Source of the DNA: Armatimonadia bacterium
GTDB lineage: Bacteria; Armatimonadota; Zipacnadia; Zipacnadales; UBA11051
Direction of reading: 5' to 3'
Length of the DNA stretch: 34,599 nt
Assembly (NCBI GenBank): GCA_039683575.1
Contig: JBDKRC010000224.1
Location: 1 to 34,599 of the forward strand
Each line of letters begins with the position of its first letter. Position 1 is the stretch's first letter. Shown here in pieces: positions 553 to 13,616 of this stretch. The notes under the pieces were generated by a model. It was not told the origin of the DNA. It worked only from the letters and a program-made list of their open reading frames with translations, and ran no database searches. Position numbers and translations under genes: made by a program.

Positions 553-1788
553 ATGAGCAACTCCTCGCCCCAGCCAATCCTGCTCTCGCCCACCGGCCAT
601 CCTGTCGCCTACATGCGGCTCATGATCGCGTCGGTGCTTTGCATGGTCATGTTCGGTGCCGTGCAGGTCATGCCTACCGTCTGCCTCGATGCCCTCGGCC
701 GCGATATGTGCCTGAACTTCGAGCAGCGCGGCTTCCTCATCGCGATCCGCATGGCGGCGCTGACCGCGTGCCTGCTCGTGGTCGGCCACTTCGGCGAGCG
801 CCCCGGCAAACGCTTCATCCTCTTCGTAGGCCTCGCCGCCATCTCCGTCGGCCAGATCATGGCCGCTCGTGCCCCCGGCTATTCCGTCCTGCTCGCCGCC
901 TTCATCGTCTCCGGCCTCGGCTATGGCGTCGTCGAAGCCTACCTCAACCCCATCGTCGCCCAGCTACACCCGCACGGTTCCGCCCGCGCGCTCAACATCC
1001 TCAACGGTATCTTCTCCCTCGGCCTCGTCCTTGGCGCCCTCACCACCGGCGAGATGCTGCAGGCCGGCCTCGGCTGGCGACTGCCCTTCTGGGTCTGGGT
1101 CCTGCCGCCACTGGTCATCGGCATCCTGTACCTGACGCCTCACTACCCCGCGCCAGTGCATGGCTCCGACGATGTGCGCCCGACCCCCGACGTCCGCCGC
1201 TTCATCAGCCTCCCGCTGTTCTGGGTGCTGTTCGGGGCCATGATCCTCGGCGGCGGCTGCGAAGCCGGCCTCACCAATTGGGCCCCCAATTACGTCGCTG
1301 AAGTCCTAAAAGCCACCGCCCGCGGCGGCGCCTGGACCACCATCCTCTACGGAACCTTCATGGCCGTCGGGCGCCTGGGCAGCGGCCTCGTCGTCTCGAA
1401 GACCGGTGCGATAAAGCTGATGGTGCTCTCGGCCATAGCCTGCGGTGTCGTCACCGCCGCGCTCACCTTCGTGCCCAGCATGTTGGTGGCGTGGGTGCTA
1501 TTTGCTCTCAGCGGCCTCTTCGTGGCCTGCTTCTGGCCGACGCTGCTGTCGATCGGCTCGGATCAGATCGCCCCCGGTTCCACCTCGCTGCTGTCCTTAC
1601 TCGGCGCCGCGGGCGTCAGCGGCTGCGTCATCGTCCCCTGGGCCATCGGTGCGCTCGGCGACCTCTTCGGCCTCCGCCTCGCCATGCTGGTATTGCCGAC
1701 TTCGATGATTCTGCTGATCATTCTCCTCGCCACCGCCGCCGGCATCGTCCACCGACACAAGAACGGGACTAACGAAAATGGGGACTGA
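553..1788 (+). CDS. MFS transporter (FucP/TsgA-like sugar permease)
   Basis: About 12 hydrophobic segments, motif-A-like GHFGERPGKR, ALNILNGIFSLG, GGCEAGLTNWAP. The ORF-track start at 343 would read through the palindrome, so ATG 553 is preferred. Confidence 0.88.
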   Translation: MSNSSPQPILLSPTGHPVAYMRLMIASVLCMVMFGAVQVMPTVCLDALGRDMCLNFEQRGFLIAIRMAALTACLLVVGHFGERPGKRFILFVGLAAISVGQIMAARAPGYSVLLAAFIVSGLGYGVVEAYLNPIVAQLHPHGSARALNILNGIFSLGLVLGALTTGEMLQAGLGWRLPFWVWVLPPLVIGILYLTPHYPAPVHGSDDVRPTPDVRRFISLPLFWVLFGAMILGGGCEAGLTNWAPNYVAEVLKATARGGAWTTILYGTFMAVGRLGSGLVVSKTGAIKLMVLSAIACGVVTAALTFVPSMLVAWVLFALSGLFVACFWPTLLSIGSDQIAPGSTSLLSLLGAAGVSGCVIVPWAIGALGDLFGLRLAMLVLPTSMILLIILLATAAGIVHRHKNGTNENGD

Positions 1789-10717: not shown

Positions 10718-11881
10718 ATGGCTACAGTAAGTATCCCCAAGAGCGAATTCCAGAAGCGTTGGGCCACTGCACAGGCGAAGATGGCGGAGATGGACCTCGA
10801 CGTTCTCATCGCCCATGGTGATGAAGCGGACCCGTCGAACGTCCGGTATCTCTCCAACTACTGGCCGCTGTTTGAGACCGGCGGCGTGGCCCTCGGCCGC
10901 ACCGGCGATCCCATGCTGCTGATCGGCCCCGAGACCCTCACGTTCGCCAAGGACCGCTCGGCGATCAAGGACATCACGATGCTCCTGCACTACCGCGAGT
11001 CCGCCGAGCCGGATTACCCGGGCGTGCAGCTTGACACCTTCGCCGATGTCTTCAAGAAGGTCGCTGGCGGCAAGGAGATCAAGCGCATCGGCATCGCGGG
11101 CCTGCCTGTCATGCCCGTCACGGTGTACGAGCAGATCAAGAAGCACGCCGGCAAGGCCAAGATCGTCCGCGCCGATGACATCATCGTGGACATGCGGACC
11201 GTCAAGAGCGCCAACGAGCTCAAGTGCATGCGAGAGGCCTTCCGCATCAGCGAGCTCGCTACCGAGTACGTCCTCAACAACCTCAAGCCCGGCATGACCG
11301 AGCAGCAGGTCGTCGGCCTGGCGCAGGCTGCCATGTATGAGAACGGCGCCGAGTATGAAGGGCACCCGACGTACGTACTCTCCGGCAAGAACAGCACCCA
11401 CGCCATCGGCCGCCCGAGCCCCAAGGTCATCAAGGCAGGCGAACTGATCCAGCTCAACATCGGCGCACTGGTCAGCGGCTACTCCTCCAGCGTCGGCCGC
11501 CCGGTCTGCATCGGCAAGATGCCCGCGAAGATGCGCGAACTGGTCAGCTTCGGCCTCGAGGCCCACTACAAGACCGCCGAATTGATGAAGGCCGGCGTCC
11601 CGGCTGCCGAAGTTGTCATCAAGTTCGAAGAGTTCGTCAAGGCCGCCGGCTATGGCAAGTACCTGCTGTACGGCCCGTGCCACTCAATCGGCCTGATGGA
11701 AGTCGAGCGCCCCTGGATGGAAAGCAGCAGCAAGTATCCGCTGCAAGAGAACATGACCTTCCAGATCGACACGTTCCTGTACACAAACCAGTTCGGTCTG
11801 CGCTGGGAAAATGGCGCCCGCGTCACCAAGAGCGGCGTCGAGTGGCTGTCGGATTACCGGAATGAAGTAATCGAGTTGTAG
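10718..11881 (+). CDS. M24 (Xaa-Pro peptidase/creatinase-fold) hydrolase with atypical metal site
   Basis: Creatinase-N-like NVRYL, RTVKSANEL, KPGMTE, HSIGL, GLRWEN; ATG after GGGAGG. Confidence 0.88.
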   Translation: MATVSIPKSEFQKRWATAQAKMAEMDLDVLIAHGDEADPSNVRYLSNYWPLFETGGVALGRTGDPMLLIGPETLTFAKDRSAIKDITMLLHYRESAEPDYPGVQLDTFADVFKKVAGGKEIKRIGIAGLPVMPVTVYEQIKKHAGKAKIVRADDIIVDMRTVKSANELKCMREAFRISELATEYVLNNLKPGMTEQQVVGLAQAAMYENGAEYEGHPTYVLSGKNSTHAIGRPSPKVIKAGELIQLNIGALVSGYSSSVGRPVCIGKMPAKMRELVSFGLEAHYKTAELMKAGVPAAEVVIKFEEFVKAAGYGKYLLYGPCHSIGLMEVERPWMESSSKYPLQENMTFQIDTFLYTNQFGLRWENGARVTKSGVEWLSDYRNEVIEL

Positions 11882-11883
11882 AC

Positions 11884-11941
11884 GGCGGGAACAGGTAAGG
11901 CGGGAACATCGGGAACAGATACGGCGGGAACCGTGGAGAAC
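11884..11941 (+). repeat. GGCGGGAAC-type 9-mer repeats, left flank of the four-helix-bundle gene
   Basis: Units at 11884, 11899, 11908, 11923 and a degenerate unit at 11933. Confidence 0.9.
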
Positions 11942-11979
11942 GCGTAGTGCGGGCGTCTCGCCCGCATCGGGGGGAGCTA

Positions 11980-12342
11980 GTGGCAGAGCAGGTCCGAGAT
12001 TTCAAGCAGTTGGACGTCTGGCGTATCGCCATGCACGTCGTGACGCTGACATACCAGATGACGCGTGGCCTGCCCGATGACGAGCGGTTCGGTCTCACCA
12101 GTCAGATGCGCCGCACTGCAGTCTCCATGGCCTCCAACATCGCGGAAGGCTATGGCCGCGGGCGAAGGCAGGAGTACATCAGATTCCTGCAAATCGCCCG
12201 TGGTGCAGCCTGTGAGTTGGAGACGCAGGTTCTCCTGTGTACGCAGCTTCAGTATTCAGTTCAGTCTGAGGAGATTCTGCTGCAGCTCAAACGCTGGTAT
12301 CAACTCATGAATCGCCTTCTCCGGTCTCTGGAGACCGCCTGA
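11980..12342 (+). CDS. Four-helix-bundle protein (23S rRNA IVP / Avd-like family)
   Basis: FKQLDVWR, LPDDERFGLTSQMRRTAVSMASNIAEGYGR, FLQIARGAACELETQ; GTG after GGGGAG. Confidence 0.95.
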   Translation: MAEQVRDFKQLDVWRIAMHVVTLTYQMTRGLPDDERFGLTSQMRRTAVSMASNIAEGYGRGRRQEYIRFLQIARGAACELETQVLLCTQLQYSVQSEEILLQLKRWYQLMNRLLRSLETA

Positions 12343-12355
12343 GCCGTTTTGCCGG

Positions 12356-12424
12356 TGTTCCCGATGTTCCCGCCTCTGCCGTACGTTCCCGGCGTTCCCG
12401 CCTTGTCTCAACGGCGTTCCCGCC
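12356..12424 (-). repeat. GTTCCCGCC-type 9-mer repeats, right flank, inverted relative to the left flank
   Basis: Units at 12357, 12366, 12385, 12394, 12416; 12356-12375 is the exact reverse complement of 11898-11917. Confidence 0.9.
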
Positions 12425-12441
12425 TCTAAAGGAGCAAGAAA

Positions 12442-13323
12442 ATGTCCGACATCACCGTACTCTTCGGTCTCGACATGGAGACCGACGTTGGCAGTTGGGG
12501 GATTAACTACGAGGGCGTCACGCAGGGCACCCCGAAGCTCTTGAAGCTCTATGCAGAAAAGGGCGTCAAGGGCACCTTCTACTTCACCGGCGAAACCGCT
12601 CGCCTGCATCCGGAAGTCGTGCAGGCAGTCCATGCCGCCGGAAATGAAGTTGGCTGCCACTCTCTGTACCACGAGACCGTGGGCGACCCGATCTTCGAGA
12701 TCCCCGGCGTCAAGCCGCTGCTGGTCGAGGAAGTGCCCTTCCGGCTGAAAGTGGCCACAGACTGGGTCACCGAGGTCCTGGGCGAGCAGCCAGTGTCATT
12801 CCGCTCGCCCCGCCTGTGGGGCAGCACCGCCGTCTGCAACGCGCTCAATGACATGGGCTACGTCTCAGACGCCTCGTATCCGCTGTACTTCTACGAAAAG
12901 CAGCTTGTGCCGTATCACCCCAGTTCCCACGACTGGACCGAGACCGGCGACCTGAAGCTGGTCGAAATCCCGAATTTCTGCGACATGACCCTGAATAGCA
13001 CCGATGAGTACCATCGGGATCGGGACCAGTGGCCGCTGTTCCGCAACAAGAGCGCCGAGGAGCTAATGCAGCATATTGATAACTTCATCGGCTATGTCCG
13101 CGAGCGGAACCTGCCCGTGGTGCTGTGCTTCTACTTCCACCCGTGGGAGTTCATGCCGATGCCGACGCGGCTGCACTATGGCGAGGGAGCGGTCGAGCCG
13201 GACTACTTCCTGGTAGAGAACTGCGGCGACTACGCGATGGAGCAATTCACTATCCTGATAGATCTGCTCAAGTCGCGCGACGCGAAGTTTGCGACCGCCA
13301 AAGAGATCGCAGCGGAGTGGTAA
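12442..13323 (+). CDS. Polysaccharide deacetylase family protein (CE4/NodB-like)
   Basis: GLDMETD, GTFYFTG, EVGCHSLYH, SFRSP, YFHPWE; RBS AAAGGAG. Confidence 0.9.
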   Translation: MSDITVLFGLDMETDVGSWGINYEGVTQGTPKLLKLYAEKGVKGTFYFTGETARLHPEVVQAVHAAGNEVGCHSLYHETVGDPIFEIPGVKPLLVEEVPFRLKVATDWVTEVLGEQPVSFRSPRLWGSTAVCNALNDMGYVSDASYPLYFYEKQLVPYHPSSHDWTETGDLKLVEIPNFCDMTLNSTDEYHRDRDQWPLFRNKSAEELMQHIDNFIGYVRERNLPVVLCFYFHPWEFMPMPTRLHYGEGAVEPDYFLVENCGDYAMEQFTILIDLLKSRDAKFATAKEIAAEW

Positions 13324-13496
13324 ACTGCGCAAAAGGGGGGCTTAGTTGCGCAAACGAAGTTAACCAATGTAACGATTCGGGCCGGAATTAGGCCCTAACA
13401 GGCTTGGATTGCAATGGTATGAAGTGGTGAGTGAACGGGTGGGCCCGATGGGCGACGAGACTGCTCATTCTGCCCCCTCGTATCGCTCCGAACAGT

Positions 13497-13573
13497 TGTC
13501 ATTCTGAGCGAAGCGAAGAATCCCCGTGATGGTATGAGATCCTTCGTCGCGAACGACGCTCCTCGGGATGACA
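13497..13573. repeat. TGTCAT..GAGCG / CTC..ATGACA palindromic repeat (family C)
   Basis: tgtcattctgagcgaagcgaagaatc...gatccttcg...ctcgggatgaca; second copy at 33778-33862. Confidence 0.85.
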
Positions 13574-13616
13574 GCGTTGGACAATACAAGACACAAAAGC
13601 GCTGGAGATGATAAGC

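Follow-up and report, generated by a model that had tools for sequence, protein, structure and literature searches.

Intervening sequences (IVSs) of 23S rRNA that carry an open reading frame (ORF), known from Coxiella burnetii, Leptospira and others, are the closest described counterparts of the element considered here. In C. burnetii the IVS is 428 nt long and its S23p ORF is enclosed by a 28-bp terminal stem, within which RNase III cuts; two to three tandem GACAGAT heptamers, whose number varies between strains, stand ahead of the ORF (PMC4990558). The element analysed in this work lies at about 11882-12426 of a 34,599-nt stretch of DNA from an Armatimonadia bacterium (contig JBDKRC010000224.1; the whole stretch is called the window) and holds a gene of the same protein family, 23S_rRNA_IVP (IVP hereafter), between two inverted arrays of short repeat units. 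An earlier note, made from the letters of this DNA, had linked it to rRNA intervening sequences, and the link was apt, given the terminal stem, the heptamers ahead of the ORF and the RNase III cutting reported for Coxiella (PMC4990558). The cassette shares with the ORF-bearing rRNA IVSs the protein family, a terminal inverted-repeat stem around the ORF, short purine-rich direct repeats ahead of it and a sporadic distribution that looks horizontally acquired, the cassette being absent from its site in 17 relatives. Whereas those insert into helix 25 or 45 of 23S rRNA, it is situated between two protein-coding genes of an mRNA operon; its units of 7-9 nt are irregularly spaced rather than tandem heptamers as in Coxiella, it carries a nested hairpin resembling repetitive extragenic palindromic (REP) sequences, and its processing is a predicted one. 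The cassette would work like an ORF-bearing rRNA IVS, yet it fails the location in rRNA that defines that class.

Other known systems share parts of this architecture. REP sequences and their RAYT transposases (REPIN systems) also combine dispersed hairpin repeats with occasional gene-bearing copies, and eukaryotic foldback elements have long inverted arms made of short tandem repeats. In contrast to REP/RAYT systems, no Y1 (RAYT) or other transposase lies in or near the cassette; in contrast to both REP/RAYT and foldback transposons, what is carried is a gene for a four-helix-bundle or a PD-(D/E)XK-fold protein. A related small, basic four-helix-bundle pentamer is Avd, known from diversity-generating retroelements (DGRs). 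Unlike Avd genes, the cassette has neither an adjacent reverse transcriptase nor a template/variable repeat pair. The Correia elements (Correia repeat enclosed elements, CREE) of Neisseria are inverted-repeat elements located between genes and co-transcribed with them; RNase III can bind to these elements and either cleave or protect them (PMC2649163). They differ from the cassette in having no gene, in having fixed terminal repeats instead of short-unit arrays and in being found in Neisseria only. In Geobacter metallireducens, paired sites on opposite strands, which stand at varying distances from one another and are each composed of five heptanucleotide or four octanucleotide repeats, resemble the gene-less or gene-bearing shells described below; they were published as 'predicted global regulator binding sites' with no link to IVP or GxxExxY genes in the passages that describe them (PMC2700814), and shells of this kind may be what they are. 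Full-text literature searches, which covered neither subscription journals nor the supplements of PMC2700814, gave no account of IVP or GxxExxY genes enclosed by inverted-repeat shells outside rRNA.

The region at about 11882-12426 is a discrete inserted cassette; besides an intact IVP gene it contains a REP-like hairpin, nested inside, and two CGGGAAC-type arms that are complementary to each other. Our main reading is that it is an inserted member of a class of hairpin cassettes and that RNase III cleaves its arms in the transcript of the operon; the probability of this combined reading is put at about 0.6. That the region is an inserted member of the class is, taken separately, very probable. 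As DNA the cassette is probably mobile, while its arms most likely act in RNA.

The cassette is identified as an insert because the genes on its two sides, encoding an M24 metallopeptidase and a polysaccharide deacetylase, adjoin in 17 relatives, none of which has an IVP gene between them. Of 40 relatives searched, 22 had an M24 orthologue (E <= 1e-60), with the deacetylase gene directly downstream in 17; in the remaining five it was not within the fetched 1.5 kb, two of these loci being at a contig end. None of the 22 M24 loci carried an IVP gene. The gap between the two genes is 560 nt here, as against 14-305 nt in 16 of the 17 syntenic relatives and 843 nt, with an unrelated ORF, in the other one. 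The closest relative, of the same genus (L006), has a gap of 60 nt containing a plain hairpin. No target-site duplication was seen at the cassette site. The earlier note had proposed an excisable or mobile cassette and had pointed to empty sites in relatives as the place to look: the inserted unit and the empty M24-deacetylase sites are both there (0/17 with the IVP gene), and the support for excision at the DNA level is limited to the presence and absence of the cassette between genomes.

The same junction holds other sequences elsewhere. In L012 (G029, about 2655-2960) the 305-nt gap contains a long palindrome, CCGTGGTAGGAGCGCTCCCC...GGGGAGCGCTCCTACCACGG, and in L025 (G032, 658-1501) the 843-nt insert carries the unrelated ORF. 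The M24-deacetylase junction seems to be a repeated landing place.

Arms are here the two complementary repeat arrays that enclose the gene, as located by a repeat and inverted-match search. The G-rich left (5') arm extends over 11884..11943 and the C-rich right (3') arm, complementary to it, over 12355..12424. Exact GGCGGGAAC units begin at 11884, 11899 and 11923 on the plus strand and at 12366, 12394 and 12416 on the minus strand, and these six, three per strand, are all the exact copies in the 34.6-kb window. The left arm is completed to five units by the degenerate ATCGGGAAC (11908) and GAGAAC (about 11935) and is built as two 22-nt repeats placed 24 nt apart; the GTTCCCG units of the right arm begin at 12357, 12366, 12385, 12394 and 12416, with the degenerate GTTCCCGAT (12357) and GTTCCCGGC (12385) making up the five. 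A perfect 20-nt inverted match joins AGGCGGGAACATCGGGAACA at 11898..11917 with TGTTCCCGATGTTCCCGCCT at 12356..12375. When one mismatch was allowed, GGCGGGAAC gave 21 matches in the window, and the 15 non-exact ones, one of which (12385) falls within the right arm, agree with the 16.5 expected by chance (standard deviation 4.4). The RNA fold predicted by RNAfold for 11875-12440 (566 nt) pairs both flanks with z = -8.4, and none of 100 shuffles was as good. The duplex of the arms alone was calculated at -86.3 kcal/mol, compared with a mean of -52.9 kcal/mol, a standard deviation of 5.05 and a best value of -72.4 for 300 shuffled right arms.

Between the arms, the nested REP-like hairpin (11941..11967, plus strand; GCGTA followed by GTGCGGGCG TCT CGCCCGCA) lies between the left arm and the ribosome-binding site, a likely Shine-Dalgarno sequence GGGGGGAG at 11970..11978 recognised by reading the sequence. 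The four-helix-bundle gene (23S_rRNA_IVP / TIGR02436) then occupies 11980..12342 on the plus strand, with a GTG start, a TGA stop and 120 aa. Upstream, the M24 gene (10718..11881, plus strand; profile matches to Creatinase_N and Peptidase_M24) ends with a TAG stop at 11879-11881, its start being uncertain in an ORF open from 10592. Downstream, the deacetylase gene (Polysacc_deac_1 profile match; 12442..13323, plus strand) starts with the ATG at 12442 and has its ribosome-binding site, AAAGGAG, at 12428-12434, 4 nt past the right arm. Within the 560-nt gap between the two genes, the cassette takes up everything from the stop codon to the AAAGGAG. Among the nine large ORFs within about 8 kb of the cassette no transposase, integrase or reverse transcriptase was found, and the only RVT_1 match of the genome is on a different contig (C320). 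Every detail that the earlier note had described was confirmed: the gene between two enzyme genes of the same orientation (Peptidase_M24, IVP and Polysacc_deac_1 profiles, all on the plus strand), about five units per side once degenerate copies are counted, the exact 20-bp inverted match, the lack of such arrays elsewhere in the window as judged by exact copies, and the lack of an adjacent transposase or reverse transcriptase. Its suggestion that the flanks could pair as RNA agrees with the predicted fold.

The cassette protein matched PF05635 (23S_rRNA_IVP) with E 1.5e-29 and 102.8 bits (cut-off 33.8) and TIGR02436 ('four helix bundle protein') with 100.5 bits (cut-off 24). It is similar in sequence to PDB 2gsc_A (E 9.2e-25), whose entry consists of five chains. 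The gene is intact, and all seven invariant columns of a 29-sequence alignment are kept. The IVP fold is one without known catalytic activity. A role as a component of anti-phage defence was considered and rejected, since neither the IVP protein nor the GxxExxY protein described below matched any family of the PADLOC models at E <= 0.01. Three PF05635 genes are present in the genome, a draft of 352 contigs, and the expectation that each paralog would have inverted short-repeat flanks of its own held for both of the others, with different repeats in each. The paralog on C213 (L002) has GGGAATN heptamers on one side and ATTCCCN on the other, and an in-frame TGA replaces the conserved arginine of the QMRR motif (L002, about 1700-1712, minus strand); from its sequence it is probably a pseudogene that still holds its heptamer arms. 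The paralog on C63 (L001) has CAGG/TCAG-type units upstream and CCCTGA-type units downstream. Within the order, the IVP proteins closest to the cassette protein are those of L078 (60% identity, with CGGGAA/GGGAAT units) and L002 (58%, GGGAAT).

The flanks of IVP genes were then compared across the family. The order sample comprised 91 PF05635 matches in 36 of 67 genomes, of which 84 loci had enough flank. For each locus, the 160 nt upstream were aligned locally (+2/-3/-5/-2) with the reverse complement of the 160 nt downstream, and the threshold was set at 29, the best score of 420 shuffles. Median scores were 39.5 for a locus's own partner in inverted orientation, 16 for the same flanks in direct orientation, 18 for a partner from another locus and 16 for a shuffled partner. 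Scores above 29 were reached at 57 of the 84 loci, at none of 95 displaced mock positions of the same geometry and in three of the 84 direct comparisons. A second sample, taken from many phyla with a 6-sequence alignment as the query, included Planctomycetota, Bacteroidota, Pseudomonadota, Acidobacteriota, Chloroflexota, Patescibacteria, Bacillota and Verrucomicrobiota. Here 55 of the 77 testable loci exceeded 29, with eight direct comparisons and two shuffle maxima above it, in a set made up of the best 80 of at least 600 matches and hence biased to closer relatives of the cassette protein. Isolates with cassettes above the threshold included Vreelandella sedimenti QX-2 (L163, score 146), Geobacter sp. 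AOG1 (L185, 42), Zoogloea oryzae NBRC 102407 (L180, 33), Hymenobacter fastidiosus (L160, 30) and H. aerophilus (L161, 30). These comparisons of flanking sequence indicate that the cassette belongs to a widespread class, in which most IVP genes appear to be wrapped in locus-specific inverted arrays of short units.

The unit period differed among the 57 armed loci of the order, being 7 or 14 in 17, 9 in seven, another value in nine and not clear in 24. The arm on the 5' side was G-rich in nearly every case. The aligned 5' arm had more G than C at 48 loci and more C than G at seven in the order, and at 49 and five loci, respectively, in the phyla sample, so that 97 of 109 loci with differing counts have the G-rich arm first; the 5' arm was purine-rich in 55 of the 57 armed order loci. 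Because an inverted repeat reads alike on both strands, the arm transcribed first is the G-rich one whichever strand is read, so that this G-rich-first polarity belongs to the element itself and is independent of gene orientation.

A shell is the pair of arms considered apart from the gene that it may enclose. To locate shells, the 6.2-Mb genome was scanned for any 6-mer occurring at least three times in close succession with an array of its complement within 1.5 kb. The scan returned 11 loci, the cassette locus included; the arms of L001 escaped it. Three of these loci are gene-bearing, namely the cassette locus, C213 and C321. At C321:7589-8103 (L115, about 1061-1575), the ACAGGAT-type inverted arrays enclose the genome's only GxxExxY gene (PF13366 PDDEXK_3 / TIGR04256, 126 aa), which belongs to a PD-(D/E)XK-fold family and sits between hisF and hisI in the same orientation. 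The same arms, CTTTACAGGATG...CATCCTGTCAAGC, recur at three gene-less hairpins (C323:6551-6652, C323:63120-63229 and C47:14827-14926) with 37-39 nt between them, so that ACAGGATG-type arms are common to four loci, one with the GxxExxY gene and three without a gene. No target-site duplication was seen at these four copies. On C81, gene-less arms of the GGGAAC type, which is the cassette's unit type, surround 117 nt and have diverged from the arms of the cassette, whose own arm sequence was found at no other locus in the genome. The arms on C68 are almost identical to those on C213, so that GGGAAT arms occur at two loci. The remaining loci of the scan are C44, C223 and C246, the array on C246 being probably due to chance. 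Among the 26 GxxExxY genes found in the order, 21 loci were testable, of which 16 scored above 29, compared with none in direct comparison. Judged by their flanks, most GxxExxY nuclease-fold genes appear to be separately wrapped in locus-specific inverted arrays as well, and gene-less shells occur. Since GxxExxY genes and gene-less copies share the shell, the shell is not tied to the IVP protein.

The arrays on C68 (C68:5786-6043; L117 1061-1318) have an unusual setting, as both lie in frame within the gene for a 569-aa membrane protein. They encode GGIGNGESGIG and RFPIPNSRFPM in two variable loops around a conserved segment. The congeners G003 and G002 carry different repeats at these loops, WRDGEMARWRDG / IPNPESRIP and GIGIRDSGFG, respectively.

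The site between tRNA-Ser(GGA) and the large signal recognition particle (SRP) RNA provides a second view of empty and occupied states. The L001 paralog (1430-1960; G000 C63) stands between the SRP RNA and tRNA-Ser(GGA), which closes a row of six tRNA genes, all in the same orientation. In 13 of 48 genomes with an SRP RNA match, covering three families of the order, an IVP gene of the same orientation lay 105-455 nt ahead of the SRP RNA. The comparison of this site covered 23 loci in which tRNA-Ser(GGA) precedes the SRP RNA. The gap between the two was empty at 11 loci (19-178 nt) and held a full cassette at seven (544-750 nt), arms with gene remnants only at two (L256 and L261; 564 and 614 nt), a gene-less hairpin at one (L263; 230 nt), a degraded sequence at one (L253; 384 nt) and other ORFs at one (L251; 726 nt). 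The IVP proteins at this site are 40-90% identical, and their arms differ between genomes and are complementary within each. In L046 and L049 the base of the stem begins at the 3' GCCA of the tRNA. The IVP cassette at this site is an IVS-like spacer in a stable-RNA operon. The gap of L251 (G021) contains two small non-IVP ORFs behind a short GGGAG-type array.

According to our main reading, the cassette would be transcribed by read-through from the M24 gene, because on the strand of the gene it lacks promoter-like and terminator-like sites of its own: neither a promoter-like site on the plus strand nor a terminator-like site was found in 11600-12700. Once made, the C-rich 3' arm would pair with the G-rich 5' arm and loop out the gene, giving a bulged stem with about 55 nt of each arm paired, the perfect 20-bp duplex included. 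RNase III, whose gene is present in the genome, would then cut this stem in the way known from the homologous intervening sequences of 23S rRNA, releasing the IVP message and separating the two host messages, so that the insertion would do little harm to the operon. Cutting of the arms in the operon transcript, as a claim on its own, stands at roughly even odds. The setting in operons is in agreement with it: by a caller based on codon-position GC, for which the background rate was unmeasured, the upstream neighbour shared the orientation of the IVP gene in 48 of 53 calls, as did all neighbours together in 91 of 108. The place of the L001 paralog among stable-RNA genes, with a stem base that in relatives adjoins the 3' end of the tRNA, also counts for a role in RNA.

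Unpaired RNA that is rich in C and poor in G is a loading site for Rho. The polarity of the arms may be understood in these terms: a C-rich arm placed first would lie bare while about 400 nt are transcribed, whereas a C-rich arm placed second would be paired at once. The G-rich-first order would keep the C-rich, Rho-attracting stretch from lying unpaired during transcription of the gene. That the polarity reflects avoidance of Rho loading sites is our guess.

RNA data were sought for the locus; 21 runs matched, and four of one study were used. Contigs from these RNA libraries match the cassette at 95-100% identity. One of 998 nt covers 11508-12447 and thus the 3' end of the M24 gene, both arms and the start of the deacetylase gene. 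Other contigs end at 11903, 12371 and 12379, in or beside the arms; these are loose ends, with adapter letters past 12371, from which no inference was drawn.

Several observations weigh against the main reading. The four RNA runs consist of assembled contigs, in which transcript ends, strand and level are unreadable and which may derive from DNA. If selection had maintained pairing in the sense RNA, mismatches between the arms compatible with G.U pairs there would be expected to exceed those of the A.C type; the counts were 141 versus 120 in the order, 73 versus 101 in the phyla sample and 214 versus 221 pooled, with no excess, in a test that is weakened by ambiguity of register in repeat arrays. 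Selection for sense-RNA pairing was consequently not detectable, and the test does not separate function in RNA from function in DNA. A cruder caller based on ORF length found 34 of 55 neighbours co-oriented, with most flanks uncalled. By the threshold, 27 of 84 IVP loci in the order and 22 of 77 in the phyla sample are without arms. Several cassettes have conserved unit cores separated by spacers that match poorly, a pattern that also fits arrays of protein-binding sites; arm-to-arm identity was 0.88 of aligned columns in the unit cores and 0.77 in the positions between, a difference that does not decide between pairing and binding sites because local alignment favours matches. Lastly, near-identical arms at several loci of one genome and the in-frame arrays on C68 call for copying at the DNA level, which an account confined to RNA leaves unexplained.

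In one rival explanation the arms are the DNA-level ends of a mobile element of the foldback or miniature inverted-repeat transposable element (MITE) type. A mobility enzyme, provided in trans or as the GxxExxY-type nuclease cargo of sister elements, would bind to the arrays, and pairing in RNA would be incidental. The unit repeats are reminiscent of the ends of Tn7 and Mu with their multiple sites and of the arms of eukaryotic foldback elements, which are made of tandem repeats. The ACAGGATG-type arms shared by the hisF/hisI locus and three gene-less hairpins, the arms of the C213 IVP pseudogene that recur almost unchanged on C68, and the tRNA-Ser/SRP site with its empty (11), full (7), remnant (2) and 230-nt gene-less hairpin states all favour this account, as does the missing RNA strand signal in the G.U test. 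It is opposed by the cassette and its surroundings, in which no transposase, integrase or reverse transcriptase was found, by the lack of target-site duplications at the four ACAGGATG copies and at the cassette site, by an IVP cargo without a known catalytic fold, and by the fact that the cassette's arm sequence occurs at no other locus of the genome, C81 sharing the unit type with diverged arms. We consider this explanation unlikely; it is compatible with the main reading. A further possibility is that the units are RNA or DNA binding sites of the IVP oligomer, which would thereby control its own mRNA, stem processing or the maintenance of the cassette. Five units per arm would match a homopentamer, and the solved relative was deposited with five chains and is described as a homopentameric toroid (PMC4990558, in a passage citing Lin 2006). 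The order's closest IVP proteins (L078 and L002) carry related units, which shared descent of the whole cassette also explains, and the unit cores are better conserved between arms than the spacers, as given above. Against this, the same shell surrounds the unrelated GxxExxY family and gene-less copies, so that arms need no IVP, and unit periods and numbers vary widely among the 57 armed loci; we hold this explanation to be distinctly improbable.

Two other explanations were considered as well. Avd and IVP proteins are kin by sequence family, and the gene could in principle be an Avd-type accessory of a DGR, with the repeats as its template or target. Avd_like genes stand beside 62% of DGR reverse transcriptases (PMC8934634). 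The DGR reading was rejected for this locus, as the sole RVT_1 match is on C320 and the neighbouring ORFs contain no reverse transcriptase; moreover, the repeats are short inverted units and not a direct pair of about 100 nt, and no template/variable repeat pair was found. We regard it as extremely improbable. The same degree of disbelief applies to chance low-complexity sequence or an assembly artefact, for which the draft state of the genome in 352 contigs could be cited. This was rejected because all exact units of the window lie at the cassette locus in a mirror arrangement, no shuffle reached the energy of the fold or of the duplex, independent RNA-library contigs reproduce the cassette at 95-100% identity, and the pattern recurs in 57 + 55 + 16 other loci.

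The finding of an IVP-family gene that has been inserted, within two inverted arrays of short repeats, between two enzyme genes of an operon suggests a far broader, undescribed kind of cassette, of which the ribosomal intervening sequences would be one example. A bolder extension is offered tentatively, and we hold it to be somewhat less probable than its negation: IVP and GxxExxY cassettes would be two cargo forms of one undescribed, phylum-spanning, foldback-like mobile class, whose arms pair in any host transcript and are removed by RNase III ('self-insulating'). The classic 23S IVSs would then be those members of the class whose insertion site happened to be in rRNA, the long-puzzling pairs of heptamer or octamer arrays in bacterial genomes would be its empty shells, and the IVP pentamer would read the units. 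The 23S_rRNA_IVP / four-helix-bundle family is very large and has been without a function since its discovery in rRNA intervening sequences. If most IVP genes lie in hairpin shells among ordinary genes, the rRNA elements are the visible tip of a general cassette type and not an oddity. If true, this would give the IVP family and the no less obscure GxxExxY family each a concrete candidate nucleic-acid partner, would add to operon annotation a recurrent structure that probably makes RNA processing sites, and would provide a candidate origin for dispersed paired short-repeat arrays that have so far been read as regulator sites.

Dispersed repeats of other kinds accompany the cassettes. The REP-like hairpin, cGCGTA-GTGCGGGCG-TCT-CGCCCGC, has 188 copies in the genome at <=3 mismatches, often in tandem, one of them being the copy nested in the cassette. 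RNA-library contigs link this hairpin to other flanks, and in a close strain present in the RNA library it is duplicated at the cassette position. A further dispersed repeat, of the GTCATCCTGA...GAAGGATCT...CAGAATGACAG type, was observed in the loop of the C81 hairpin (117 nt, L116) and near the C213 cassette (L002 100-180). The window may hold another copy of this type at about 13395-13590, downstream of the deacetylase gene.

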